A stretch of DNA of 64,000 nucleotides from Candidatus Limnocylindria bacterium (GCA_036004845.1 DASYRA010000026.1:4477-68476); one strand, 5' to 3'. Shown: positions 6,978 through 26,089, numbered from the stretch's first letter. A program made the numbers and translations. The notes: generated by a model not told the origin, from the letters alone.

Positions 6978-7721
6978 CTAGAGCGCGGAGCCGATCCCGA
7001 GCGCAGCGGCGCCGACGACGGCTGCGGCGAGCAGGATGGCCCAGTCGGCCGCGCGCATCCGTTGCGGGCGAGCGATGGTGTGGCAGGGCGCGGTGCCGAA
7101 GCCGCGTGCATCCATCGCAAGGGCCAGGCGGGTCGCGCGACGGACCGACCCGACCAGCAAGGCCAGCAGCTTCCCGAAGGCGAGCCGTGCCGCGGCCAGC
7201 GGCGACCAGCCAGCGTCGACGCCCCGTGCCCGACGGGCCATGCCGAGCAGCTGCCATTCGATCGCCAGGATGGGGAGCATGCGGATGCCCGCCATCGCCG
7301 CCACGGCAAGCCGCGGGGAGAGATGCGCCTGCTGCTGGAGCGAGTCGGCCAGGTCGGTCGGGTCGGTGGTCACCACGGCCAGGACGCCGGCGAGGGCGAT
7401 CGCCAGCAGGCGCAGGCCGAGGGCGATGCCAGCCGCAAGGTCCGGGCTGCCGTTCACGTTGGGAGCGAGCAGCACGTTGAAGATGCCAACCATCAGGGCA
7501 GCGATCAGCAGCGGCCACGTCCTCCCCAGCAGCGCGCCCACGCCGAGGCCGGTGAGCGGGAGGCTGGCACCCATGGCGGCCAGCACCACGATCGGCGGGA
7601 CGGGGCCGGACGCCACGAACAGGAAGGCCATCAGGATGGCCGCGGCGCCCAGCTTCGCGACCGGGTTGGCGCGCGCCAGCGAAGCGCGGGGGTCGGGTCG
7701 CAGTGGGGTGAAGCGCCTCAT
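6978..7721 (-). CDS. ykoC: ECF transporter transmembrane (T) component, YkoC/CbiQ-like
   Basis: 247-aa polytopic membrane protein with the EcfT-type ARRARG / AMDARGF coupling motifs. ATGA overlap with the upstream ATPase gene. Confidence 0.8.
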   Translation of the reverse strand: MRRFTPLRPDPRASLARANPVAKLGAAAILMAFLFVASGPVPPIVVLAAMGASLPLTGLGVGALLGRTWPLLIAALMVGIFNVLLAPNVNGSPDLAAGIALGLRLLAIALAGVLAVVTTDPTDLADSLQQQAHLSPRLAVAAMAGIRMLPILAIEWQLLGMARRARGVDAGWSPLAAARLAFGKLLALLVGSVRRATRLALAMDARGFGTAPCHTIARPQRMRAADWAILLAAAVVGAAALGIGSAL

Positions 7722-13427: not shown

Positions 13428-14419
13428 CCCGCCGAGCCCGCGAACCCGGCCAGCTCATCGATGACGGCCAGCACCGATCCGTCAGGGGTCAGCGCAATGT
13501 GCTGGTCCCCGCGTCGAAGGAGCAGCGACGATCCGTCTGGAGCGAAGCATGGCCCGGAACCGATCCCGACGCTGTGCGGGGTTGAGGCCGCGGCATCGAG
13601 CACGAAGATGCCGTGGTCGCCGTACTCGTAGGCGATGCGGCCGTCGCCCGCCACGGCAACGTTCACGGCACCCGGGTCGAGGTGGGCCAGCACCCGCGCG
13701 GCACCCGAGGTGAGCCGCTCGACCCGGGCCCCGCTCGGATCGTGGACGACGATGGCGAGGTCGCCGTCGTCGAGTGGGAAGGCGGCGTAGACGAGGTCCT
13801 CCTCCGAGAGCGCGGCCGCGACCCCGTTCGTCGGATCGAACTCAACGAGGCGCGACTGATACGGCGCCTGGACGGATGGGACCGCCAGCAGGATCAGGGA
13901 ACCGTCGGCGGCCACGATCGGCGAGCCGACAAACGGACCGTCGTCCAGGAGCTCTGCACGGCCCGACCCGGCATCGACTCGCCAGAGGGCGCCGCGGCCG
14001 TCGGTGACGGCCAGCCATGACGCGTCCGTGGCAAACGCCGCGGCCAACAGGCCGGGAAGCTGCACCCGCAGCTGGGCGCCATCGGCGCCGGCCAGCGTGA
14101 GCGAACCGGCGAGCTCGCCGACTCGATCTGCGAGGGCCACCTCGGCGCCGTCCGGTGAAACCGCCAGCAGGCTCTGGCCGGCGGCTGGTTGCTCCACCTC
14201 GACCAGGGTTGAGCCACCCACGGCGTGTTGGAGCAGCAAGATGGTCGCCCCCGACCGCTCGGCATCTGCAGCGCTCAGGCGGGTGACCCCCGGCACCTGC
14301 CCGGCGGACACCACCCCCGCAGCCAGGGCGGCGAGGACGATGGGAATGGCGGCGAAGGCGGCGATGCGAGGATCGCCGCGCGGCTGGCGGCGCGCGATGA
14401 CGCCCTGGGACCAGGACAT
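13415..14419 (-). CDS. membrane-anchored beta-propeller repeat protein (TolB/PD40-like), hypothetical
   Basis: N-terminal TM segment (IAAFAAIPIVLAALAAGVV) followed by repeated SPDG/APDG/AADG-type blade motifs. 13-nt overlap with the M23 gene. Confidence 0.55.
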   Translation of the reverse strand: MSWSQGVIARRQPRGDPRIAAFAAIPIVLAALAAGVVSAGQVPGVTRLSAADAERSGATILLLQHAVGGSTLVEVEQPAAGQSLLAVSPDGAEVALADRVGELAGSLTLAGADGAQLRVQLPGLLAAAFATDASWLAVTDGRGALWRVDAGSGRAELLDDGPFVGSPIVAADGSLILLAVPSVQAPYQSRLVEFDPTNGVAAALSEEDLVYAAFPLDDGDLAIVVHDPSGARVERLTSGAARVLAHLDPGAVNVAVAGDGRIAYEYGDHGIFVLDAAASTPHSVGIGSGPCFAPDGSSLLLRRGDQHIALTPDGSVLAVIDELAGFAGSAGCGS

Positions 14420-14421
14420 GG

Positions 14422-14498
14422 AGACCTCCGTAGCGTTGAGAACGACCGCTGAAACAAACGCTTCGGTGGCGACAGACCTCCATTCGTGGGAGAACGAC
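14422..14498. repeat. duplicated 25-nt module AGACCTCC-N8-GAGAACGAC (period 52 nt) in the leader of the propeller/M23 operon
   Basis: AGACCTCC at 14422 and 14474; GAGAACGAC at 14438 and 14490, with identical internal spacing. On the minus strand the proximal copy supplies the GGAGGTCT Shine-Dalgarno of the 14419 start. Confidence 0.6.
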
Positions 14499-14557
14499 GA
14501 TGACGAGCCTAGGAAGCGGTCCTTACCGCAGACTTATGGGGCAATGAACCGCGCCAG

Positions 14558-15319
14558 ATGCCCCCGTCGCTGATGCTTCCCGCCTGGCTGGCGCTGGGTG
14601 GGTTCCTGCTCCTGGCAGGTGGGCTGCTCCTCATGCGTCGCTCCGGGGCGCGCCCGACGATGGGCAGGCGGCTGGCCGGAGCCCGCCAGCTGCGCGTTGG
14701 AGAGCTGCTCGATCTCGCTCCAGGCGATCTGCTGCCCCATCGACCCGTGCGCGTGGTCGGTCGCATTCGCTGTGGCGAACCGATCGTCACCCCGCAGGAC
14801 GACGGGCTCGTCGCTCTCCATCGGGACGTGGAGGTGGAAACCTCGCATGGCGAATGGAGAAGCATCGAGCGCCTGCGAGAGACCCGCTCCTTCGAGCTGT
14901 GGGACCACGACGGGTCCCTGGAGGTCGATCCCGCGCAGGCGGCCGAGCCGCTCGTCGTGCTGCCGCACGTCTGGTCGGGCTCGGTGACGGAGCTTGACGA
15001 GTCCTACGCGCCTGCGCTGGCGCGACTCACCGCTGAGCAGGGGCCCGCGATGCAGGCCCGGGCGATCACCCGCATGGTCAGCGTGGTCGATCGGCTGCTG
15101 CTGCTGGCGACGATCAGGCGCAAGGCAGACGGTCGGATTGCCCTGCTTCCGCCTCCTGGCGGATTCATCGTCAGCACGCTCGACCTCGACGACGCGATGC
15201 GGCTCCTGGGCGGCTCGCGCCCGCGATTGATGCTGGCCGCCACGGCAGCCCTTGTCCTGTCGGTTGCCGTGCTGGTCGCGGCGGCCGTGCTGCTGGTTTT
15301 CGGGCTCAGCGCCGCCTGA
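14558..15319 (+). CDS. membrane protein with GIDE-like domain (N- and C-terminal TM helices)
   Basis: TM at both ends. The central VRVVGRIRCGEPIVTPQDDGLVALHRDVEV ... FELWDHDGSLEVDP pattern resembles bacterial GIDE-domain proteins (from memory). Confidence 0.5.
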   Translation: MPPSLMLPAWLALGGFLLLAGGLLLMRRSGARPTMGRRLAGARQLRVGELLDLAPGDLLPHRPVRVVGRIRCGEPIVTPQDDGLVALHRDVEVETSHGEWRSIERLRETRSFELWDHDGSLEVDPAQAAEPLVVLPHVWSGSVTELDESYAPALARLTAEQGPAMQARAITRMVSVVDRLLLLATIRRKADGRIALLPPPGGFIVSTLDLDDAMRLLGGSRPRLMLAATAALVLSVAVLVAAAVLLVFGLSAA

Positions 15320-15393
15320 TCGAGGGTCGGCGCCCAGCGAGTACTGGTGCCCCGGGGTACGAACGGGGTATCGAGGCGGCGCCTACCCAGTTC

Positions 15394-15399
15394 TACCAT
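15394..15399 (+). promoter_or_regulatory. candidate -10 element (TACCAT) for the GGDEF operon
   Basis: gttcTACCATccgc lies 58 nt upstream of GTG 15458. Preceded by the tandem CGGGGTA repeats at 15353-15370. Confidence 0.35.
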
Positions 15400-15457
15400 C
15401 CGCTCCACGGGACTTACCAGAAGTTCCAATGCCCAAGAGGGGCAGGAGCGGACAGCA

Positions 15458-18400
15458 GTGGCGCAGACAGCTCGCGACCATGCGGAGGGCCGGGAGGCCC
15501 TGGTCAGCGTTGCCCAGGCGGCTGCCCTCCTGGGTGTCCACCCCAACACCCTTCGCGCCTGGACGGACGCCGGCAGGCTGCCGGCGTATCGGATCAACGC
15601 TCGCGGCGACCGACGCTATCGCAGCGGCGACGTGCAGCGGCTCCTCGCCGAAGGCACTGGCTCTCCTGCGCCCCCGGCACCCGAACGCCGGATCGACGCC
15701 GAGCTCGCCGTCCTGGGCCGGCTCACCGCGGGGCCTGGAGGCTCGGCGAACGCCACCGCCGTGTGTCGAACCGCCGTAGAGGCTCTCCGTGCCCACCTGC
15801 GCATCGCACGGGTCGCGGCCTACCTCGCGCGCGAGGGCGGCGACGGCTCCCTCCAGCTCGAGACGCATGCGGGATACGAGACCGCGCCGCCGGAGACGAT
15901 CGATCCCGCCCGCAGCTTCGACCACGGTGAGGATGGGAGCCTGGTCGCGGACATCGTCGTCGGCCCGCTGCGTCGCCAGGTCGCCCTGCGCGCGGGTGGT
16001 GGTGGCGAGATCGTGGGAGCACTCGTGCTCGAGGACGATCCGGGCGGGCCGCTGGTGGGCGTCGCGCTCGGCTTTCTGCGAACGGTGGCCACGGCGGTCG
16101 CGGCCAACGTCTTCACCGCGCGGGCGCTGGCTCGCGCCAAGCGCGAGGTGACGCGGTCTCGAGTCCTGCGCCACGTCGCGCAGGAGCTCGCCGGTCAGCT
16201 CGACCTGAGCACGGTGCTCGACGACATCGTCGAGCGAACTCGAACCCTGTTCGACGCCGACAAGGCCGGCCTGTGGCTGATCGAGGAGGGTGAGCGCCCG
16301 TTCCACGTCGCGGCCGTGCGCGGCATCGGCGAGCGCTTCCTGGCCAAGACGCGGGAGCTGACCTGGGACAGCACCGCGGTCGGCGTCCAGGCCGCCAAGG
16401 AGCGCCGCAGCATCGTGGTTCGCAACGCCGACACGCGAGCCGGCGTCGGGGAGATGCAGCAGCACTACCGCGATGAGGGGATCAAGACCTCGTGCCTCGT
16501 GCCGCTGGTGAACCACGACCAGGCGCTGGGCCTCATCGGCCTGTTTCACACACGCGATCGGGAGTGGCCGGACGACGAGCTCGCCCTGGCCCAGGGGTTT
16601 GCCAACCAGGCCGCCGTCGCGATCAGCAACGCTCGCCTCTACCGCTCGGTGGCGGACCAGGCCGCTCGCATCCGGTCGATCCAGGATCTGTCGTCCAGGC
16701 TCAACCGACTGACCGACGTCCAGGCGATCGCCGACGCCATCGTGGCCGAGGCGAGCACGCTGGCGGCCTATCACGACATCCGGGTCTACGTGGTGAACTG
16801 GGACGAGGGCCTGTGCGAGCCGGTCGCGTACACCGACCGGCTGCTGGGCAAGGGCGACTTCCACGAGCGCCTGCGCGTCGCCATCGGCGAGGGGTCATTC
16901 ACCGGCTGGGTCGCGGAGCACGGCGAGCCGCTGCTCATCAACGACGCGCTGAACGACACGCGCGGGCACACCATCGAGGGGACCGACGACATCGACGAGT
17001 CGATGCTGGTGGTGCCGATGCTGTTCGAGGGGCGTGCCGTCGGCGTGGTCGCCCTATCGAAGCTGGGCCGCGACCAGTTCAGCAACGACGACCTGCAGAC
17101 GATGACGATCTTCGCCGGCTACGCCGCCCAGGCGATCGCGAATGCATCGGCCTATGAGCGGATGGAGCTGCAATCGACGGAGCTTGCTCGCCAGCTCCAG
17201 TCCCAGCGTCGCCTGCTAGAGATCAACGAACGACTGCAGTCGACCCTCGACCAGCAACACGTGCTGGAGACGATCGCCGACGGCCTGCGCTCGGTGGTCC
17301 ATTACGACAACCTGTCGATCTATCGCGCCGACCACCAGAATCAGGTCATGGTGCCGGTCCTCACCAGGGAGCGGCACGCCGAGCAGGTGATGGCCTATCT
17401 CGCGCCGTTCAGCCGGGGCCTGATGGGGTGGGCCGTCGAACATGCGGAGTCGGTCCTGGCCAACGACGCGCTGAACGACCCGCGGGCGGTGCAGATCCCC
17501 GGCACGCCGGCGGATCCCGAGTCGCTGGCGGTGGTGCCCCTCGTCGGCGGAGGCGAGGTGATCGGCTGCATGAACATCTCCCGCGTCGGCGGGGCCGAGA
17601 ACTACTTCAGCGAGAACGACTTCGAGCTGATCAAGCTCTTCGCTGGCCAGGCATCGATCGCCCTGCGCAACGCCGACACCCACCATGCCGTCAGTCAGCG
17701 AGCCGACACCGATGCCCTCACCGGGCTCGGCAACCATGGATCGTTCCAGCGAACGCTGGGCGAGCTGGCGAACGATTTCGCCGCCGAGGGCGGTAGCGGG
17801 CGGCGCAAGGGGGCGCGAGCCAAGCAGCGCCCCATCTCGCTGCTGATGATGGACCTCGACTCGTTCAAGGGCTACAACGACCGGCTCGGCCATCCAGCCG
17901 GCGACGCGCTGCTGCACGCGGTCGGGACCGGGATCTACGGCGCCGCGCGAACCGACGACCGGGTCTATCGATACGGTGGCGACGAGTTCGCCCTGGTCCT
18001 GCCTGCGGTTGACGGGGATGCTGCTGCCGCGATCGGTGAGCGGGTGCGCGAGGCCGTCTCGCGGCTCACGTCGAACGATGCAACGCCGGTCACGATCTCC
18101 ATCGGCGTCGCAACGCTGCCAGGGGACGCCAACGACAAGAACGGGTTGATCGCCGCCGCGGACATTGCCCTCTACTACGGGAAGCAGTCGGGAGGTGATC
18201 GGGTGATGCGTGCCTCTCACGTCCCCGGCGAGATGCGCGACCTGCGCGACACGCTCGATCAGTCGGCCCGCACGGCGCTGCTCGTCCCGCAGGGCGCCGA
18301 CGGGGAGGGGGCCCGGGGTGCCGTGCGTCGCGGGGCGGTCACACCCATCGTCTCGAATGCGGACGAGGGGGTGATCGAGGCGCTGCTGGCGCTGGCTCGC

Positions 18401-18871
18401 TCCATGGATGTGCGCGATCCCGCCGGGCGTGGGCACGCCGACCGGGTCGCGATCCTGGCCGCCAGGATCGCCAAGCAGCTCGACTGCCATGCCCAGCAGA
18501 CCGCCGACATCGAGCTCGCCGCGCGATTGCACGGGCTCGACCTGGTGGCTGCCACCGAGCTCGAGGCAATCAACTCTCTCCGCCCCGCGGCCGTCCTCGT
18601 CCGCCAGCACCGCGCCGCCATGGACCCGCAGGAAGCCCAGATCGGCTCGCAGATCGTCTCGGTCGCCGATGCCTACGACTCGCTCCTCAGCGGCTCGGAC
18701 GGAAAGCGCCGCGGGCGCGCGGCGGTCCTCACCGCGCTGCGAGCGGCGGTGGGGACCCGCTACCGCGCCGAGGTGGTGGAGGCGCTGGCCACCGTCGTCT
18801 CCGCGCGGACCGTCCGGGGCCAACATCGACGGCGGAGCGACCGGCAGGCTGACGAACGGGGAGCTGCCTGA
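15458..18871 (+). CDS. multidomain signalling protein: excisionase/MerR-type HTH, 4 GAF-like domains, GGDEF diguanylate cyclase, degenerate HD-GYP-like domain
   Basis: HTH: LVSVAQAAALLGVHPNTLRAWTDAGRLPAYRINARGDRRYR. Four GAF-like blocks follow, then RYGGDEFALV with the RTDD I-site 5 residues upstream. The C-terminal GHADRVAILAARIAKQL ... LHGLDLV segment is HD-like with the Asp lost. Start placed at GTG 15458 (GGAG 8 nt upstream); the track start is 15347. Confidence 0.85.
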   Translation: MAQTARDHAEGREALVSVAQAAALLGVHPNTLRAWTDAGRLPAYRINARGDRRYRSGDVQRLLAEGTGSPAPPAPERRIDAELAVLGRLTAGPGGSANATAVCRTAVEALRAHLRIARVAAYLAREGGDGSLQLETHAGYETAPPETIDPARSFDHGEDGSLVADIVVGPLRRQVALRAGGGGEIVGALVLEDDPGGPLVGVALGFLRTVATAVAANVFTARALARAKREVTRSRVLRHVAQELAGQLDLSTVLDDIVERTRTLFDADKAGLWLIEEGERPFHVAAVRGIGERFLAKTRELTWDSTAVGVQAAKERRSIVVRNADTRAGVGEMQQHYRDEGIKTSCLVPLVNHDQALGLIGLFHTRDREWPDDELALAQGFANQAAVAISNARLYRSVADQAARIRSIQDLSSRLNRLTDVQAIADAIVAEASTLAAYHDIRVYVVNWDEGLCEPVAYTDRLLGKGDFHERLRVAIGEGSFTGWVAEHGEPLLINDALNDTRGHTIEGTDDIDESMLVVPMLFEGRAVGVVALSKLGRDQFSNDDLQTMTIFAGYAAQAIANASAYERMELQSTELARQLQSQRRLLEINERLQSTLDQQHVLETIADGLRSVVHYDNLSIYRADHQNQVMVPVLTRERHAEQVMAYLAPFSRGLMGWAVEHAESVLANDALNDPRAVQIPGTPADPESLAVVPLVGGGEVIGCMNISRVGGAENYFSENDFELIKLFAGQASIALRNADTHHAVSQRADTDALTGLGNHGSFQRTLGELANDFAAEGGSGRRKGARAKQRPISLLMMDLDSFKGYNDRLGHPAGDALLHAVGTGIYGAARTDDRVYRYGGDEFALVLPAVDGDAAAAIGERVREAVSRLTSNDATPVTISIGVATLPGDANDKNGLIAAADIALYYGKQSGGDRVMRASHVPGEMRDLRDTLDQSARTALLVPQGADGEGARGAVRRGAVTPIVSNADEGVIEALLALARSMDVRDPAGRGHADRVAILAARIAKQLDCHAQQTADIELAARLHGLDLVAATELEAINSLRPAAVLVRQHRAAMDPQEAQIGSQIVSVADAYDSLLSGSDGKRRGRAAVLTALRAAVGTRYRAEVVEALATVVSARTVRGQHRRRSDRQADERGAA

Positions 18872-18899
18872 TCGACCCCTCCTCGGCCCGGGCGCTATC

Positions 18900-19637
18900 A
18901 TGGCGCCTCCCATGCCGACGACCCGACCGGACGCTGCCCGCCGGCGGCGCGCCATCCAGACGCGGCACGTCACCACGCTGTCTGCCCTCCTCCTGATCGT
19001 CGCCGGTTGCACGTTCGCGTCGCCAACCCCGACGCCGAGCCCGAGCCCCGTCCCAACCCCCGTCGCCACGCCGACGCCGGAGCCGACACCAGAGCCGACC
19101 CCGATCTTCACGAACGTCCCTGATCCGGCGCTGGTGGCCCTGATCCCGACCGAGGCCGCCGGGCAGGTGGTCCAGATCCCGGCGATCACGGAGTTCTCGA
19201 TCACGCCCGGCGACATCGGCGAGGTCTATGGCGAGATCGGCGCGCGCTTTCGCTCGCTCCAGATCGCGTACATCTCGCGCCCTCGCCTCTCGCTCTACGC
19301 CATGCGCATGAATCCGCCGACCGTGACCACGGCGGACCTGAAGCCGTACCTGGCCGCGGCGGCGGAGTACGTCGGGATCGCGGGCCTCCACCCCGAAGCG
19401 TGGAAACTGCAGACGGTCGCCGCCCACGTCGTCTGGGTGCGTCCCGAGGACAACGCGACGCTGCCCGGGACGCGGGTCTACAGCTGGGTGGCCGACGACC
19501 TCGTCTTCCTGATGATCGGCGTCGACGAGGCGCAGAACCTGGCCATGCTGGCCGGCCTCCCCGGCGAGGCACCCCCGACCCCATCCCCGGTGCCCTCGAC
19601 CATTGAAATCCCGAGCGTCGGGCCCTCAGCCTCATGA
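18900..19637 (+). CDS. hypothetical lipoprotein with Pro/Thr-rich linker
   Basis: ATG 18900, in frame within track ORF 18408..19637. LSALLLIVAGCTF lipobox, then a PTPTPSPSPVPTPVATPTPEPTPEPTP linker, then a globular domain of unknown family. Confidence 0.6.
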   Translation: MAPPMPTTRPDAARRRRAIQTRHVTTLSALLLIVAGCTFASPTPTPSPSPVPTPVATPTPEPTPEPTPIFTNVPDPALVALIPTEAAGQVVQIPAITEFSITPGDIGEVYGEIGARFRSLQIAYISRPRLSLYAMRMNPPTVTTADLKPYLAAAAEYVGIAGLHPEAWKLQTVAAHVVWVRPEDNATLPGTRVYSWVADDLVFLMIGVDEAQNLAMLAGLPGEAPPTPSPVPSTIEIPSVGPSAS

Positions 19638-20659
19638 CCGATTGGGGCGATTGGGGCGACGACGCGCGCGAGGATCGCCTCTCCCGCAAGCGAGACCGCC
19701 TGGCCCGCCTCCTCTCGGTCGCCTCGATCCTGTACGCCCGCGGCAGCGGCGAGTCCGGCGTGCCGGTCGCCGAGATCGCCGGGCTGACGGGGATGACGAC
19801 CCGCACCGTCTACCGCGACATCCGCGCGCTGGAGGAGGAGCTGGCGATGCCGATCTTCCAGGCGGGAAAGGGCCGGTACGGGATCGAGAAGAAGTACTTC
19901 CTCCCGCCGCTGCATCTCTCCCTGCCCGAGGCGGTCGTCCTCTTCCTGGCGTCGCGCCTGATCGCCCGCTGGTCGGATGCCTACGACCAGGCGGTGGTCA
20001 GCGCCTTCACCAAGCTCGCCGACCTGCTTCCCCAACCCATCGCGCGGCACGTGGCCGCCACCATGCTGACCGTCGGCCAGGCTGAGCCGAACGACCAGTT
20101 CGTGCGGAACTTCGCCCACGTCGCCCAGGCATGGGCCGATGGGCGGGTCGTGGAGTTCGAGTACGAGCCGGGCGAGGGTGAGCGCCGGAAGGCGCGGGTG
20201 CAGCCGTACTTCCTCGAGCCCGATGCAGCTGGGCGCAGCGTCTACCTGATCGGCTTCGACGAGACCGTCAAGGCGATGCGGACGTACAAGGTGGAGCGGA
20301 TCCGGAGTTCGACGCTGACGGCGGACCGCTACCAGATCCCCGACGACTTCGACCCGGACCGCTGGCTCGCCCACTCGTGGGGCATCTGGTCCTCGGACAC
20401 CACGGCCACCGCCGATGTGCGGCTGCGGTTCGAGGCGTCCGTCGCGCATCGCGTGCGCGAGGCGGTCTGGCACCGCTCGCAGCGTGTCACCGAGCTGCCA
20501 GACGGCCGGGTCGAGCTGACGGTGACCGTCGCCGGCATCGTCGAGATCCGGCCCTGGATCCTCTCCTGGGGCGATGGGGTCGAGGTGCTCGAGCCGCCGG
20601 AGCTGCGGGAGGCGGTGGCCCGCGCCGTGCGTGCGGCCGCGGCACGCTACGAAGCGTGA
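19634..20659 (+). CDS. WYL-domain transcriptional regulator (HTH-WYL-WCX; YafY/PafBC-like)
   Basis: N-terminal HTH (VPVAEIAGLTGMTTRTVYRDIRALEE), a central WYL-type segment (RVQPYFLEPDAAGRSVYLIGFDE ... RTYKVERI), and C-terminal VEVLEPPELR. ATGA overlap with the lipoprotein gene. Confidence 0.85.
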   Translation: MTDWGDWGDDAREDRLSRKRDRLARLLSVASILYARGSGESGVPVAEIAGLTGMTTRTVYRDIRALEEELAMPIFQAGKGRYGIEKKYFLPPLHLSLPEAVVLFLASRLIARWSDAYDQAVVSAFTKLADLLPQPIARHVAATMLTVGQAEPNDQFVRNFAHVAQAWADGRVVEFEYEPGEGERRKARVQPYFLEPDAAGRSVYLIGFDETVKAMRTYKVERIRSSTLTADRYQIPDDFDPDRWLAHSWGIWSSDTTATADVRLRFEASVAHRVREAVWHRSQRVTELPDGRVELTVTVAGIVEIRPWILSWGDGVEVLEPPELREAVARAVRAAAARYEA

Positions 20660-21291
20660 CCTCGCCTCACGTCGAAGCCGAGCTGAAGTACACCACCCTC
20701 GACGAGCGCCCGCTGCAGGAGCTGGAGCGCGCGGAGCGCCTCGGCCCGGCGCATCTCGGCGTCCCCCGGACCGTGGCCGAGCTGGACCGATACCTGGACA
20801 CGACGGGCCTGCGCCTGGCCGCGCTCCGCTGGGCGTGCCGCCTGCGGTCGCGCGAGGGACGGACGGTCGTCTCGCTGAAGGGGCCTGCCGAGCACGCGGC
20901 TGGTGATCGCGTCCATCGGCGGCCCGAGCTTGAGGGACCGGTGGGCAGGGGCCTCGACCCGATCGGCTGGCCACCGTCAGCCGCCCGAGATCGGCTGCTC
21001 GCCATGGCGGGGGGCGCGCCGCTCACCGAGAGATTCCGGCTGGAGCAGGAGCGGATCGAGCGATCCGTGTCGATGGGCGGCCTCCGGGTGGGGACCCTGT
21101 CGCTCGACCGAGTGCGGGTACTGCGCGGCGAGACCGACCTCGGCGGGCTGCTGGTGGTGGAGCTCGAGTTCGACCCGGCCAACCCCGTCGATCATCGGCC
21201 CCTGGCGGCTGCCCTGGGTCGGCTGCCCGGCCTCGCCCCCGATCCGTTGAGCAAGTTCGAGCGCGCGGAGGGGATGCTGGCCGGCGCCTGA
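20656..21291 (+). CDS. CYTH-domain protein (triphosphate tunnel metalloenzyme family)
   Basis: GTG 20656 overlaps the WYL stop (GTGA). The N-terminal VEAELKY is the ExExK signature, followed by alternating charged beta-strand patterns. 211 aa, no CHAD domain. Confidence 0.7.
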   Translation: MTSPHVEAELKYTTLDERPLQELERAERLGPAHLGVPRTVAELDRYLDTTGLRLAALRWACRLRSREGRTVVSLKGPAEHAAGDRVHRRPELEGPVGRGLDPIGWPPSAARDRLLAMAGGAPLTERFRLEQERIERSVSMGGLRVGTLSLDRVRVLRGETDLGGLLVVELEFDPANPVDHRPLAAALGRLPGLAPDPLSKFERAEGMLAGA

Positions 21292-21298
21292 TTCGCGC

Positions 21299-21988
21299 TC
21301 AGTCGCCGAGCGGGAGACGAAGGATCAGCGCCAGCGTCGGGCGTGGGCGTGGCTCGGGCGCCAGCAGCGAGGCGCGCAGCCACGCATCGCCGGCCGGTCC
21401 GGCCCGATGGCGCGCGCTCAGCTGACGCGCCGACAGGCCATCGATCCCCAGCGCCGCCAGGGCTTCCGCCACCAGCGTGCCGTCACCGACGTAGGCGCGT
21501 CCAACGGTGACGCGGTCCCCGGGGGTCAGAATCGCATCGAGCCAGCGGCGCCGAACCCCGAACGACCTCGCGACGACGGGCTGGCCGCCGCTCCACAGCA
21601 GGTCGCCGGCGACGTAGGCCGGGCGGCCGGGGCGCGCCCGTCCCTCGAGCCGGGCGCGTAGCAGCTCCGGATCGGGGCGTCCGGCGTCATCGAGGACGAG
21701 CAGGGTCCCATCGAGCACCACGCCGTCCTCGGCAAGCTGCTCGGGCATCGGCATCAGCTCGGGGAAGGCCGCGAGCGCATCGGCCAGGCCAGCGACCTGG
21801 AGCCGGACGGTGCCGTGCTCGCAGAACGCGATCGCACGGGCGCCGGGCCACCACGGCTCGAAGAGGTAGCCCGGATCGTCAAACGGCGCATCGACGATGG
21901 TCGCCTGCATCGGGGAGATGCGGGATGGCAGGCGTCGCGGCGAGTCGCTGCTGGGCGGAACCGGGAGCGGAAGCTGCTCTGCCGCCAC
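21299..21988 (-). CDS. ATP-dependent DNA-ligase-like nucleotidyltransferase domain protein, catalytic motifs degenerate (probable pseudo-enzyme)
   Basis: PMQATIV...YLFEPWWPGARAIAF...VVLDGTLLVLD...GDLLWSGG...IDGLSARQL...AWLRASL aligns with LigD-type motifs I, III, IIIa, IV and V, but the motif I Lys/Asp, motif III Glu and motif IV/V Lys residues are all replaced. No OB domain. Good GC3 coding signal. 8 nt downstream of Ku. Confidence 0.65.
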   Translation of the reverse strand: MAAEQLPLPVPPSSDSPRRLPSRISPMQATIVDAPFDDPGYLFEPWWPGARAIAFCEHGTVRLQVAGLADALAAFPELMPMPEQLAEDGVVLDGTLLVLDDAGRPDPELLRARLEGRARPGRPAYVAGDLLWSGGQPVVARSFGVRRRWLDAILTPGDRVTVGRAYVGDGTLVAEALAALGIDGLSARQLSARHRAGPAGDAWLRASLLAPEPRPRPTLALILRLPLGD

Positions 21989-21996
21989 GCGAACGG

Positions 21997-22953
21997 CTAG
22001 GCGCTCTTGCGTTGGCGCGGCCGCGCCGCCTCATCGGCGCGCGTGGCCTTCGCTGGCTTCGCGCTCTTCGCGGCCTTCGCGCCGACCTTCGTACCAGCCT
22101 TGACGGTCGCCGGCTTCGCGGCGGCCTTCGCCGCAGGAGCTGCCTTGCCCTTCGCCGATGCACCCAGGCGCCGCGCTTCCCGGGCGCCGGCCACGCTCGC
22201 CTCGAGGGCCGCCATGAGGTCACCGATGCGGGTCGGCTCGACCTTCTGCGCCGGCACCGGAGCCTCGCCGGCGACCTTGGCCTCGATGACGGCCATCAGG
22301 GCCTGGCGGTAGTCGTCGTGGTACTCCTCGGGCTTGAACACCCCGGACATCGAGGCGACCAGCTGCTCGGCCATCTTGCGCTCGGCTGGCTTGACCTCGA
22401 TCTCCTCGTCGGGGATGTCCAGCTCCTCGAGCGGACGGACCTCATCGGGCCAGTGCAGGGTGGTCAGCAGCATCGTCTTCGTGTACGGGTTCAGAGCGGC
22501 GAGCTGCTCACGGTCCTTGAGCACGATCTTGCAGATGGCGGTCTTGCCCTGCTCGGCCAGGACCTGGCGCAGGAGCTCGAAGGCCTTGCGCCCGATCGGG
22601 TCGGGCTCGAGGTAGTAGGCCTGCTTGACGAACTCGACGCCCTGCCCCTCGCGATGCGCGTCGACGAACATCTCGATCTCGATCGCCCGCACCGTCTTCA
22701 GCGGGACCGCCTCGAAGTCCTTGTCGTCGAGGACGACGTAGCGCCCCTTTGCCCACTCGTAGCCGCGCACCGTCTCGGATCGCGGGATGACCTCATCATC
22801 CTCCGGGCAGTAGATCTTCATCTGGATCCGGCTCAGATCCTTCTCGTGGAGGAGGTTGAAGCCGATAGAGCTGCTCTCAGTTGCCAGGTACAGCTTGACC
22901 GGGATCGTCACCAGGCCGAACTGGATCGCGCCGCGCCACATTGAACGTGCCAT
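21997..22953 (-). CDS. ku: Ku protein (non-homologous end joining) with Lys/Ala-rich C-terminal tail
   Basis: MARSMWRGAIQFGLVTIPVKLY is a typical bacterial Ku N-terminus. C-terminal tail: AKGKAAPAAKAAAKPATVKAGTKVGAKAAKSAKPAK. Start trimmed to ATG 22953. Confidence 0.9.
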   Translation of the reverse strand: MARSMWRGAIQFGLVTIPVKLYLATESSSIGFNLLHEKDLSRIQMKIYCPEDDEVIPRSETVRGYEWAKGRYVVLDDKDFEAVPLKTVRAIEIEMFVDAHREGQGVEFVKQAYYLEPDPIGRKAFELLRQVLAEQGKTAICKIVLKDREQLAALNPYTKTMLLTTLHWPDEVRPLEELDIPDEEIEVKPAERKMAEQLVASMSGVFKPEEYHDDYRQALMAVIEAKVAGEAPVPAQKVEPTRIGDLMAALEASVAGAREARRLGASAKGKAAPAAKAAAKPATVKAGTKVGAKAAKSAKPAKATRADEAARPRQRKSA

Positions 22954-22960
22954 GCGCAAG

Positions 22961-22966
22961 ATCGTA
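22961..22966 (-). promoter_or_regulatory. candidate -10 element (TACGAT) 7 nt upstream of the Ku ATG (leaderless geometry)
   Basis: Minus strand reads ccgcTGTACGATcttgcgcATG. Confidence 0.4.
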
Positions 22967-23076
22967 CAGCGGACGGGCAACGAGGCTCAATCCTCGACCG
23001 GATGGTGCAGCCGCGGCAGGACCATCACGCCATTGGCCGCGCATCGGGCGACCACGACACTCGGCGGGTGATGCCC

Positions 23077-23568
23077 TCAGAGGACCTGCGTCCCCTCCGG
23101 CCCCGAGATCGCCACCAGCGCGCTGACCTCCTCGCCGTCCCGCTGTGCGAGCCGGTAGCGGTGCTCGATCCGAGCGGAGCGCGACAGCATGGCGTTGACC
23201 GGACAATAGATCGTCGCCGACAGCTCAACCGCGCGGCGCACCGTCTCGGGCTCGACATCACCCGCCACCTGGTGCTCGACGACGATGCCGGTGTAGACCT
23301 GCGGGTGCTCGTCGCGCTTCTCGCCGGTCACCGCAATGCGATAGCTGCTCGCCGGCTGCCGCTTCTTGCGCAGGATGCTGGCGACGTCCATCGAGGTGCA
23401 GGCGGCCAGGGCGGCCAGGAGCGATTCGGTCGGGCTCGGGCCGCCGCGATGGCCGTCGGCATCGGCGAGGTCGAACGTCATTCCGAAGCCGGTCCCGGTC
23501 AGCACGTCGACGCGTGCTCCCTGCTGCGGATCGTCCACGGTGGCGACCGCGGTGAGCGTGGTGGGCAT
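23077..23568 (-). CDS. OsmC family peroxiredoxin/redox protein
   Basis: 163 aa with the two conserved Cys contexts LAACTSMD and TIYCPV of OsmC/Ohr proteins. Confidence 0.9.
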   Translation of the reverse strand: MPTTLTAVATVDDPQQGARVDVLTGTGFGMTFDLADADGHRGGPSPTESLLAALAACTSMDVASILRKKRQPASSYRIAVTGEKRDEHPQVYTGIVVEHQVAGDVEPETVRRAVELSATIYCPVNAMLSRSARIEHRYRLAQRDGEEVSALVAISGPEGTQVL

Positions 23569-23574
23569 GTCATG

Positions 23575-23583
23575 AGCCTAGCA
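23575..23583 (-). promoter_or_regulatory. candidate extended -10 (TGCTAGGCT) 6 nt upstream of the OsmC ATG (leaderless geometry)
   Basis: Minus strand reads gacTGCTAGGCTcatgacATG. Only 29 nt separate the divergent OsmC and NERD starts. Confidence 0.45.
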
Positions 23584-23597
23584 GTCGGAAGTCACCG

Positions 23598-24359
23598 ATG
23601 CGCCTGATCCATCCCGTCATGATTCGCGGCATGCGGACCCACGCGCTCACCGTCGCGCTTGGCATGCTGATCGTCGGCTTCACCGCCCTGGTGCTCCTGG
23701 CGCTCCTGCCCTCGAACCGCGTAGTGGCCCTTGCCCTGATGGGCGTCTCCGCCGCGCTCGGCATTGGCGTGGGCACCGCAATGGTCTGGCGGGAGGCCCG
23801 CGCGGCCCGGCGACGGCGCAACGAGACCGGCGACGACATCGCGCGCCTCCTGGCCCCCACCCTCGACGACTCCTACACCCTGGTGCTGGCCCCGCGCCTG
23901 CCCGGCGTCCCCGGCGACCTGGCGGCGCTGCTCGTCGGCCCGGCCGGGGTGCGGGCGCTGATCGCGCGCCGCTGGCCCGGGCGGTATCGGGTGCGAGGGA
24001 AGGGGTGGGAGCTCGACACCCGTTCGCGGGCGGGCTGGATCCCCACCCTCACCAATCCCTCGTTCGACGCCGATGCCGTGGCTGATGCCGTCGGACGATG
24101 GTCGCGCGCCGCGGTCGACGACCCGAGCGTCGCCATCACGCCGGCCATCGCCTTTCCGCGGCCGTACTCCACCGTCGTGCTGGAGGAGCCGGCCGGCGAG
24201 ATCGTGACAATCGACAACGCCCCGTGGTGGGCGCAGAGCATTGGGCGGGTGCAGCGCATCGACGCGCAGCGCGCCACCCGGTTTGTGGAGGCGGTCCTCA
24301 GCGCCTCCGAGGCTGAGGCGACGGGAGCCGCCCGCAGCGCCGCCCCCCGGGTCGTCTAG
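23598..24359 (+). CDS. membrane-anchored NERD-domain-like protein
   Basis: Two N-terminal TM helices, then a segment with NERD-like layout (GDDIARLL...DSYTLVLAPRLPG..GDLAALLVGPAGVRALIARRW). The start could be a downstream ATG (23619 or 23631). Confidence 0.5.
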   Translation: MRLIHPVMIRGMRTHALTVALGMLIVGFTALVLLALLPSNRVVALALMGVSAALGIGVGTAMVWREARAARRRRNETGDDIARLLAPTLDDSYTLVLAPRLPGVPGDLAALLVGPAGVRALIARRWPGRYRVRGKGWELDTRSRAGWIPTLTNPSFDADAVADAVGRWSRAAVDDPSVAITPAIAFPRPYSTVVLEEPAGEIVTIDNAPWWAQSIGRVQRIDAQRATRFVEAVLSASEAEATGAARSAAPRVV

Positions 24360-26089
24360 CCCTCGACGGCCTCGTCGCCGACTTCGCCGGTGGCGGCGAT
24401 CCGTTCCGTCTCGCCCCTGGCGCCGCGCGCCAGCAGGATCCGACCACTGGCCTGGGCGGCGAACAGCTTCTCGACGGTCGCCAGCTCGTCGATGTCGGCG
24501 GGGGTCTTGTCGTCGCGAATTCGCACGATGCGCGGGAACCGCATCGCGAACCCGCTCTTGTGGCGCGCGCTGCGCATGATCCGGTCGAAGGCGATCTCAA
24601 CGACCACCTCCGGCACCACGGTCCGATAACGCCCGAAGTCCCGCAGCGTGATCTCCTTGAAGTGCTCGGTCATGGTCGCGATCTCGGCATCGGTCAGGCC
24701 GGTGTAGGCCTTGCCGATGGTGAGCAGCGAATCGCCGTCCGCCGCACGCACCGCGAAGGTGTAGTCGGAGAGGACGCCGCGACGCTTCCCGTGCCCCCAC
24801 TCGACGCCGACCACGACGCAGTCGAGGGTGGCGAGCGCCTTCTTGAGCTTCAGCCAGCCGAGCCCGCGCCGGCCGGGCTGATACACCGATTCGGGGTCCT
24901 TGACCATCAGCCCCTCGTTGCGTCGCTCGCGGGCATCGTCGAAATGCGTCTCCACCTCGTCAGCTGAGCGCGCCGTGGCGAGGTGCGAGTAGAGGAAGCG
25001 CTCGCCGCTCCGCTCCGGCAGTGCAAGCCCCTCGAGCGCGGCGCGGCGCTCGCGGAGCGGCGTTTCGAGCATGTCCCGCCCGTCGAGGTGCAGCAGGTCG
25101 AAGGCGACGAGCACGACCGGCACCTGCTCGAGCAGCTCGGGGCTCGGATCCACGCGGCCGAGCCTCGTCTGCAGGCTGGCGAAGTCGAGCACCGCCCCGG
25201 CCCGATACGGGACCAGCTCCCCGTCAATGACCAGGCGATGCGTGAACGCCGCGGCCGCCGACACGACCTCCGGGAACGCCCCGCCGATCTCGTTGAGGTC
25301 TCGCGAGAAGAGCCTCGGGCCCGCGTTGCCATCCAGGTGCAGCTGCGCGCGGATGCCGTCGTACTTATCCTCGATCCAGGCCTCGTCCCCTACTCGACGC
25401 ATCACCTCGTCGGCATCGACGACCGGCGTGGCGAGCATGAAACGGACCGGGCGTCCCAGGTGGAGTGCCGCATCGGCGAGCCGGTCGTCCCGGGCCAGGA
25501 TCGCCGCCTCGCCGGGCTCGCCGACCAGCATCAGCGCCCGTCGCACCGCCTCGATCGGACGCGCGAACGCCGCGGCGATGGCGTCCTCCAGCAACCCCTC
25601 GCGGAGCCCGATCCGCAGCTCGCGCGCGGCGATCCTGCCGACGAAGCGCGCCTCGGGAGCCGTGGCGCGCCGGAAGAGATCGGTCATCAGCCCGACCCGC
25701 GCGGCCGTGCTGCCCGCCGCGCTCATGGCGCGAAAGGCCGCGTCGACGTCCGTCAGCCTGAGGTGCGCGCCGCTCGGCTCCCGGCCGTCGAGCAGGTCGG
25801 CCGCGGCGTCCCCGAAGTCGGAGTGGCGCAGGTATGCCTCGTGCAGCGCCTGGTCGTCTGCGCCCGTGGCCGCGGCCAGCGCCTGCGTCTGCTGCACCCA
25901 GCCGAGCCCCAGCTTGTCGGCGCTGCCGGGCAGCGGCCTCCCCGCAAAGAACGTCGCGGCGATCGGCACGTCGCCCGGCGGCAGGTTGCGGAGGTAGGAC
26001 GCCAGCAGGTCGCGCTTGCGCAGCTTGGAGGTGGTGGCCGCCACCGCCTCCGCGGTCTTCGCGAACGCCGCGAACAGGCTCGAGCGCAT
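24356..26089 (-). CDS. lig: ATP-dependent DNA ligase with N-terminal DNA-binding domain (LigB/Cdc9 type)
   Basis: 577 aa. Motif I EDKYDGIRAQL, motif IV NEGLMVK, motif V GWLKLKK, plus the C-terminal OB domain. Confidence 0.9.
   Translation of the reverse strand: MRSSLFAAFAKTAEAVAATTSKLRKRDLLASYLRNLPPGDVPIAATFFAGRPLPGSADKLGLGWVQQTQALAAATGADDQALHEAYLRHSDFGDAAADLLDGREPSGAHLRLTDVDAAFRAMSAAGSTAARVGLMTDLFRRATAPEARFVGRIAARELRIGLREGLLEDAIAAAFARPIEAVRRALMLVGEPGEAAILARDDRLADAALHLGRPVRFMLATPVVDADEVMRRVGDEAWIEDKYDGIRAQLHLDGNAGPRLFSRDLNEIGGAFPEVVSAAAAFTHRLVIDGELVPYRAGAVLDFASLQTRLGRVDPSPELLEQVPVVLVAFDLLHLDGRDMLETPLRERRAALEGLALPERSGERFLYSHLATARSADEVETHFDDARERRNEGLMVKDPESVYQPGRRGLGWLKLKKALATLDCVVVGVEWGHGKRRGVLSDYTFAVRAADGDSLLTIGKAYTGLTDAEIATMTEHFKEITLRDFGRYRTVVPEVVVEIAFDRIMRSARHKSGFAMRFPRIVRIRDDKTPADIDELATVEKLFAAQASGRILLARGARGETERIAATGEVGDEAVEG

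Follow-up and report, generated by a model that had tools for sequence, protein, structure and literature searches.

The locus described here lies in a 64,000-nt stretch of DNA from a Candidatus Limnocylindria bacterium, hereafter called the window, which has a G+C content of about 70%; Candidatus Limnocylindria is a class of Chloroflexota. Four genes of the same strand (+) occupy positions 15458..21291. They encode a diguanylate cyclase (15458..18871, 1137 aa, GTG start), a lipoprotein (18900..19637, 245 aa; public gene calls place the start at ATG 18912, giving 241 aa), a regulator with winged helix-turn-helix (wHTH), WYL and WCX domains (19634..20659, 341 aa), and a CYTH enzyme, or triphosphate-tunnel metalloenzyme (TTM; 20656..21291, 211 aa, GTG start). 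The cyclase and lipoprotein genes are separated by a gap of 28 nt (18872-18899), the lipoprotein and WYL genes share an ATGA overlap (19634-19637) and the WYL and CYTH genes a GTGA overlap (20656-20659). A preliminary description, made from this DNA alone, proposed a single signalling unit of the four genes, with a WYL transcription switch that receives its input from the cyclase and from the CYTH enzyme. When we read the sequence directly, the coordinates of the four open reading frames, the gap and both overlaps were borne out, and a Pfam/NCBIfam scan supported the GGDEF, WYL and CYTH assignments; at the level of sequence, the domain matches are specific and chance features are excluded. Concerning the organization of the region, we consider it fairly probable that it comprises two independent conserved gene modules, placed head to tail and packed by overlaps in this sub-lineage of Limnocylindria.

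A pattern scan with a CYTH alignment as query covered a single genome for each GTDB species. We obtained 29 loci, all labelled as Limnocylindria, Chloroflexota or Chloroflexia, or coming from an uncultured metagenome-assembled genome. By tblastn with twelve proteins of the window, we observed synteny over at least 12 genes in these genomes; the block runs from an M23 peptidase gene through two hypothetical genes to the cyclase, lipoprotein, WYL regulator, CYTH enzyme, a small LigD-like gene (LigS), Ku, OsmC, a hypothetical gene and an ATP-dependent ligase. The four genes are thus found together in other species, and the concern that they might be neighbours in this genome only does not apply. 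Since at least 12 genes around them are syntenic, their adjacency says little about function here.

Within this block the two halves of the four-gene region come apart. The cyclase and lipoprotein genes are adjacent in all of the about 20 loci where both are visible. The next junction is readable in 22 reference loci, and 11 of these have the lipoprotein and WYL genes 0.4-3.6 kb apart, the interval in one of the 11 (L030) holding genes for a DUF2254 protein, a Na/Ca exchanger and a rhodanese; the 4-nt overlap occurs in the window and in five reference loci, and an interval of less than 160 nt in six. We also observed that the WYL start has three upstream arrangements, which differ by lineage. 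It overlaps the lipoprotein stop in the clade of the window, its ATG overlaps the rhodanese stop in five loci (L018/23/28/29/30), and in seven loci, where it does not abut the upstream gene, it is preceded at 7-10 nt by a -10-like element of its own, CTAT(C/G)ATCGG. Judging from these junction sequences, the ATGA overlap is one of three interchangeable arrangements, and for this reason it reflects compaction and no specific partnership.

The same holds on the other side of the CYTH gene, where the interval to LigS ranges from 8 nt to 2.3 kb. A gene encoding a Wzy_C-TPR protein is inserted after the CYTH gene in 15 loci and in one further locus (L112). In L030 its product is a 740-aa membrane protein and the gene overlaps the CYTH stop; because CYTH also overlaps this gene, overlap-coupling in this lineage joins functionally unrelated genes. 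The Wzy_C (O-antigen-ligase-like) and TPR protein has 735-740 aa (10657..12879 in L030, 7664..9871 in L112), and its gene, which begins in overlap with the CYTH stop in at least 15 relatives, is absent from the clade of the window. Short overlaps are found elsewhere in the window too, at 7718/7721 and 13415/13427, according to a crude gene caller based on G+C content at third codon positions; this caller missed many genes and its junction statistics were not counted as evidence.

In addition, the region contains a predicted internal promoter. The gap between the cyclase and lipoprotein genes carries a -10-like TATCAT at 18896..18901 (+), and in the aligned upstream regions 21 of 21 loci have TAT(C/G)AT with the ATG 10-11 nt behind it. 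A simple consensus scan of positions 14300-24500 returned only one sigma-70-like match, and it is this element. Because it is found class-wide in the gap, a separate promoter is predicted for the lipoprotein and the genes downstream, with a near-leaderless transcript. A four-gene unit would be expected to keep its order and coupling and to lack an internal promoter; we found the genes split in 11 loci, a variable coupling at the WYL start and a -10-like element in the gap, and these findings do not support the idea of one functional unit.

Among the junctions compared, only the WYL-CYTH adjacency is invariant. The two genes are neighbours in 28 of 28 informative loci and in both WYL-anchored look-ups, so that the recurrence of this pair across genomes, which the preliminary description had left to a neighbourhood search, is confirmed. 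Relatives of the WYL regulator were collected by a HMMER search of 1.84 billion cluster representatives. Among the 11,403 that we obtained, the in-class representative is 75% identical and the next full-length representatives are at most 46% identical. We then seeded a metagenome scan with the four representatives that are nearest outside the class and obtained 80 loci, with WYL proteins 40-49% identical to that of the window. In these 80 loci we detected no CYTH gene with a hidden Markov model (HMM) of the subfamily and no homologue of the Ku, ligase or cyclase of the window; the subfamily HMM and Pfam scans of representatives taken together gave a CYTH or GGDEF neighbour in 0 of 80. When 20 neighbour proteins, including the representatives of the largest clusters, were scanned with Pfam, we found Metallophos, cupin, CAP, an SF1 helicase-nuclease (RNaseH-like plus SF1 helicase), a methyltransferase-HNH protein, PadR, HD, SDR, UDG-like and ARPP-1 proteins, a type I restriction subunit, an integrase and McrBC. 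No match to the CYTH protein was found by tblastn against plasmids. Because CYTH is missing from the 80 out-of-class loci and has no plasmid homologue, we conclude that the WYL-CYTH pairing is restricted to this lineage. We found no literature linking WYL to CYTH as a pair.

The WYL regulator is the most conserved gene product of the block, with 75-96% identity across the class. Its HTH-WYL-WCX architecture, as described earlier, is recovered with Pfam, by WCX (9.6e-22, 77.6 bits against 23.9) and WYL (5.4e-13, 49.2 against 21.8) and, for the HTH, by a borderline match to HTH_11 (1.8e-5, 24.9 bits against 25). Its closest solved relatives are DriD (7tzv/8tp8/9pfq, E 3e-12 to 2e-11), to which it aligns over the full length, and then PafBC (6sj9, E 7e-4). 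We compared it with the list of residues by which DriD contacts single-stranded DNA (ssDNA), given in PMC9186387. In the HMMER alignment, Y168, R176, Y192 and R204 are identical, and W206, R207 and Y240 are conservatively changed, to Y, K and W respectively; by alignment, identical or conservative contacts thus amount to seven of nine, R178 and R288 being the two that differ. In a set of 15 family members, several of the contact positions do not vary. The protein is most likely a regulator of the DriD/PafBC type, which would sense ssDNA derived from DNA damage and switch transcription.

With PADLOC, the WYL regulator matched the WYL models and, in addition, the first 316 positions of the 'Cas3c' model (E 4.5e-75). 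Among its relatives are proteins of about 1200 aa that carry the WYL module at the N terminus (P0293, P0315, P0337, P0346 and other representatives). The regulator subfamily, as these alignments read, is also found fused to large, helicase-like proteins. Both the Cas3c match and the fusion proteins fit a nucleic-acid-sensing family.

The product of the fourth gene was earlier described as a CYTH protein with an ExExK signature, and it is one. It matches PF01928 with E 9.7e-9 and 35.7 bits for a cut-off of 23.2, and in 18 homologues E7, E9, R62, R64, K75, E169 and E171 are invariant and K11 nearly so. Its AlphaFold2 model has a pLDDT of 92. With Foldseek, the top match is the tripolyphosphatase YgiF from E. 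coli (5a60, E 1.7e-11, TMq 0.71); SaTTM and AtTTM3 come next, and all three have probability 1.0. Tripolyphosphatases reach TM 0.59-0.71 against the model, class IV adenylate cyclases only about 0.5. At the sequence level no relative was found in the PDB, profile search included. An identical protein is annotated in a metagenome-assembled genome of a Candidatus Limnocylindria bacterium. Within the block, this protein varies more than most (48-67% identity). On the model, it is most likely a YgiF-like triphosphatase, which would hydrolyse a triphosphate (tripolyphosphate or a nucleoside or 5'-triphosphate) and not synthesize a cyclic nucleotide.

The cyclase begins with a MerR-type HTH (HTH_17; 15503..15652, +, residues 16-65), for which Pfam gives PF12728 with E 1e-10 and PF13411 (MerR_1) with E 2.8e-8, in agreement with the earlier assignment; this segment is near-invariant in 17 orthologues. 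Four GAF modules had been reported after it. Three of them are canonical GAF domains above threshold (16202..17665, +; GAF 3.6e-52, GAF_2 7.1e-49, GAF_3 1e-31), each of these Pfam models matching three stretches, of which the best are residues 249-389 and 597-736 and the middle one lies at about residues 425-590. The fourth, N-terminal one is degenerate and only GAF-like (15755..16105, +, residues about 100-216): with PF01590 it scores E 3.6e-4 and 21.5 bits, just under the cut-off of 22.4. The GGDEF catalytic domain (17702..18199, +, residues 749-914) is recognized by PF00990 (E 2e-34, 119 bits against 23.8) and TIGR00254 (115 bits against 37.4). As had been noticed, it is intact and has an RxxD I-site: RTDD (17948..17959, +, residues 831-834) is followed by RVYRY and then by the GGDEF motif (17975..17989, +, residues 840-844), so that the I-site lies exactly five residues upstream. 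The metal-binding DxD/FK.YND segment reads DLDSFKGYND at residues 799-808. We observed that the GGDEF motif, the I-site (R-x-[DEN]-D) and this segment are kept in all 18 aligned orthologues.

The C-terminal domain had been called HD-GYP-like, with a dyad reading HG and no HHE or GYP segment. These motif readings hold and are in register with the family, and the profile matches are weak: the NCBIfam NosR-type HD-GYP model gives 1.1e-8, far under its cut-off, Pfam HD_5 gives E 0.0028 and 17.8 bits against 27.2, and phmmer gives E 0.18 to V-cGAP3 (5z7c). In the alignment with V-cGAP3, GHADRV (residues 992-997), LHG (1024-1026, LH-G for LH-D) and ADAYD (1070-1074) match the HD-GYP motifs, and they define the core of the degenerate domain (18431..18679, +). 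None of the aligned cyclase orthologues has the HD dyad (G, A or S is found there), HHE or GYP. Compared with an active HD-GYP phosphodiesterase, the domain falls short in the HD, HHE and GYP motifs and in the score; by its sequence it is an HD-GYP relic and no active phosphodiesterase. In one long-read contig (L113, 1640..5902), the cyclase gene is called in three pieces of 626, 170 and 623 aa, a picture suggestive of pseudogenisation or of frameshift errors; no separate call is made there for the lipoprotein gene.

The cyclase orthologues begin at a matching V/L codon behind a conserved Shine-Dalgarno sequence, AGGAG at 15444..15448 (+) in the window, which follows a conserved leader. The DNA ahead of the gene (15341..15448, +) is conserved as well: about 100 nt are kept at the sequence level in 18 loci, although the proteins there are just 53-85% identical. 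It includes GTAC-N12-GTAC at 15341..15360 (+) and a -10-like TACCAT at 15394..15399 (+), which is TA(C/G)CAT across the class. A riboswitch or leader RNA was considered for these 100 nt and rejected, since no Rfam family matched and RNAalifold gave no covariation (0 compensatory pairs); for the same reasons we read the region, on its conservation, as probable promoter/operator DNA, possibly bound by the HTH of the cyclase itself. A conserved hypothetical gene (14558..15319, +, 253 aa) with a hydrophobic C-terminus is always found ahead of this region; its product has no family match, GIDE and Trp_oprn_chp being sub-threshold only.

The lipoprotein was also correctly described as a lipobox protein encoded after a 28-nt gap. 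Its signal, RRRRAIQTRH-VTTLSALLLIVAG|C, can be read directly and consists of an RRRR n-region, an h-region and the lipobox IVAGC (18996..19010, +, residues 33-37, IVAG|C); Cys37 is invariant in 25 homologues. A Pro/Thr-rich linker and an alpha/beta domain of about 150 aa come next. We found no Pfam or NCBIfam family for the protein. Its 575 homologues are all annotated 'hypothetical', and those with a named source are almost all from Limnocylindria/Chloroflexota. The core is modelled by AlphaFold2 with pLDDT >90, and no fold in the PDB matched it better than E 2e-3, with TM <0.3; this may be an uncharacterised extracytoplasmic domain.

Beyond the CYTH gene, and convergent with it, lie genes of end joining. 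LigS (21299..21988, -, 229 aa) is the nucleotidyltransferase subdomain of a LigD-type ligase and has no OB fold. By phmmer it matches residues 19-185 of 310 of the LigD ligase domain from M. tuberculosis (1vs0/6nhx, E about 1e-17), and by Pfam, weakly, DNA_ligase_A_M; it is always paired with Ku. The Ku gene (21997..22953, -; PF02735 E 9.7e-42) was given a new start at ATG 22953, the first in-frame TTG (22980) falling inside a promoter motif. This motif, TTGC-N6-C(C/G)G(G/T)TG-TA(G/C)(G/C)AT (22961..22980, -), is conserved class-wide, with an exact match in 24 of 27 loci. Its TTG element stands 14 nt ahead of the -10, a distance that does not suit a -35 element, and the Ku transcript is predicted to be leaderless since the -10 lies 7 nt before ATG 22953. 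Further upstream of Ku is ATGG-N4-ATGGTCC (23019..23033, -), in place of which deep-branching relatives have a GGTACC(C)-N3-5-(G)GGTACC palindrome. A common operator, or regulon, of Ku, ligase and WYL genes was considered and rejected: a position weight matrix of the Ku promoter run over about 500 kb matched only Ku, ATGG-N4-ATGGTCC occurs at chance rate, and paired GTAC motifs are found overall in about the number expected by chance, the two conserved sites differing in spacing. The position of the WYL gene beside end-joining genes fits a DNA-damage regulator; for a regulatory link between it and Ku, these motif scans gave no support.

Taken together, these observations argue for two modules. 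The first would be made of the cyclase and the lipoprotein that always follows it and bears its own -10-like element. The cyclase would be a cytoplasmic, GAF-gated enzyme that is predicted to make cyclic di-GMP (c-di-GMP) and to be feedback-inhibited via the RxxD I-site, its catalytically dead HD-GYP relic being left with a regulatory or binding role only. Through the N-terminal HTH it is probably anchored to DNA, most likely at the GTAC-N12-GTAC operator of its own promoter. The second module would be formed by the WYL and CYTH genes, co-transcribed, and adjoins the Ku, LigD-like and ATP-ligase end-joining genes. The region is an ordinary lineage-specific arrangement in an uncultured Chloroflexota class and no new four-part system.

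Several points weigh against the two-module reading or parts of it. All the promoters mentioned here are predictions from consensus and conservation. In the clade of the window, the WYL gene has no recognisable promoter of its own, and it would therefore be co-transcribed with the lipoprotein gene and possibly with the cyclase gene; a shared regulatory input to WYL in this clade is thus possible. Concerning the ligand, two of the DriD contacts are replaced in the WYL regulator (R178 by A and R288 by V), and a WYL regulator that binds c-di-GMP, MbpR, exists (PMC11880434), by analogy with which c-di-GMP may be the WYL ligand. The Ku promoter motif has no match upstream of the WYL or ligase gene. 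Finally, the out-of-class sample consists of the nearest WYL relatives as matched by two peptide patterns, and CYTH was looked for there with a narrow HMM and Pfam on cluster representatives.

Three other explanations were weighed, and we rank them in the order WYL-CYTH ligand pair, four-gene model and defence island. According to the first, WYL and CYTH form a signalling pair: the enzyme would make or destroy a phosphate-rich effector of the regulator (tripolyphosphate, a nucleotide or 5'-triphosphorylated oligonucleotides) and in this way adjust a response to damage or stress to which the end-joining genes would belong. The invariant adjacency described above, usually with an overlap and even where the surroundings are rearranged, speaks for it, as do the strict conservation of the CYTH catalytic residues, the established role of WYL domains as ligand sensors and the Ku and ligase genes that are always near. 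However, the pair is found in one class only and the closest WYL relatives outside have other neighbours; CYTH is as tightly coupled to the Wzy_C-TPR envelope protein in at least 15 loci; it is among the least conserved proteins of the block (48-67% identity) whereas WYL is the most conserved (75-96%); and it folds like a hydrolytic TTM of the YgiF type. We therefore regard such a pair as unlikely, although it is the best placed of the three. A composite can also be envisaged, in which a WYL-CYTH damage-signalling pair uses a phosphate-rich effector with or instead of ssDNA, WYL drives the leaderless Ku/LigD-like operon from its unusual promoter devoid of a -35 element, and the cyclase is a separate, promoter-tethered 'trigger' enzyme; it seems to us distinctly unlikely.

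The four genes could still constitute one signalling device, in which a nucleotide signal of the cyclase and CYTH enzyme is read by WYL and the lipoprotein provides an envelope input. In the window and about 11 other species they follow one another directly, with overlapping stop and start codons; a simple consensus scan, of limited weight for this phylum, found no terminator-like site on the + strand from 15458 to 21291; and MbpR shows that a WYL regulator can bind c-di-GMP (PMC11880434). Against this, unrelated genes part the halves in 11 loci, the WYL gene elsewhere overlaps another upstream gene or has its own predicted promoter, a -10-like element is conserved between cyclase and lipoprotein, adjacency carries little information in a 12-gene syntenic block, both partners are missing beside the nearest WYL relatives outside the class, and the WYL pocket resembles that of ssDNA binders. 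These observations go against the earlier proposal that the cyclase and CYTH enzyme feed a WYL switch, and we hold the whole device to be quite improbable. An anti-phage defence island, in which WYL would be a repressor like CapW or BrxR and the two enzymes, cyclase and CYTH, would signal or act as effectors, is very improbable: WYL does match the WYL models of PADLOC and, with E 4.5e-75, the first third of 'Cas3c', and its out-of-class relatives lie beside restriction, McrBC, HNH and helicase-nuclease genes, but no PADLOC match is system-specific (nothing for CYTH, lipoprotein or LigS, a generic HTH for the cyclase), the block looks like core genome and keeps its synteny in all members of the class that were sampled, there is no plasmid match, and genes of housekeeping or repair (Ku, ligase, OsmC, M23 peptidase) flank it.

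If the two-module explanation is true, the region represents routine signalling and repair gene content in an abundant uncultured class from soil and freshwater. The main value of the analysis is one of caution: in compact syntenic genomes, overlaps and conserved adjacency alone define no functional system. Two features are mildly interesting, the class-specific, invariant WYL-CYTH pair beside end-joining genes and the unusual architecture of the cyclase. Three points should be of use to specialists. The most conserved gene beside the end-joining genes encodes a WYL regulator resembling the ssDNA sensors, and this in a phylum whose regulation of the damage response has received no study. A CYTH subfamily is invariably paired with this regulator. 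As for the cyclase, the exact combination of HTH, four GAF, GGDEF and dead HD-GYP was not found described in the literature; with its conserved promoter/operator region, this protein is a candidate DNA-tethered cyclase.

DriD (Caulobacter crescentus), PafBC and SiwR (Actinobacteria) are wHTH-WYL-WCX regulators activated by ssDNA. The WYL regulator of the window shares their three-domain architecture, keeps most of the ssDNA-contact residues of DriD and lies beside DNA-repair genes, as SiwR lies beside its targets. Unlike these characterised members, with which it is only about 25-30% identical, it is followed by a CYTH gene, and its ligand is a prediction; the equivalents of R178 and R288 of DriD are not kept. 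In comparison with the PafB/PafC pair, it is encoded by a single gene and presumably forms a homodimer like DriD.

With YgiF, NeuTTM, SaTTM and AtTTM3, the CYTH enzyme has in common the Pfam match, the ExExK signature and a predicted closed beta-barrel, and its homologues bear the label 'inorganic triphosphatase YgiF' at JGI. Unlike YgiF, it is a stand-alone protein of 211 aa without a CHAD domain, and its subfamily was found only in Limnocylindria/Chloroflexota.

For the cyclase, PdeL from E. coli, which is an HTH-EAL protein, and the DgcM-MlrA pair, in which MlrA is MerR-like, are the closest systems (see the review PMC5052742). In these systems too, a domain of a c-di-GMP enzyme is linked to an HTH, of MerR type or other, and by analogy this link suggests local, promoter-bound signalling or autoregulation. 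The difference is that here the HTH is fused straight to GGDEF, behind four GAF modules, and a dead HD-GYP domain follows.

MbpR from Lactiplantibacillus plantarum is a c-di-GMP-binding WYL regulator, reported to be monomeric and to use R192 and E268, the latter being conserved neither in DriD nor in PafBC (PMC11880434). Like MbpR, the WYL regulator of the window stands in a context of c-di-GMP signalling; unlike MbpR, it groups by sequence with DriD and PafBC.

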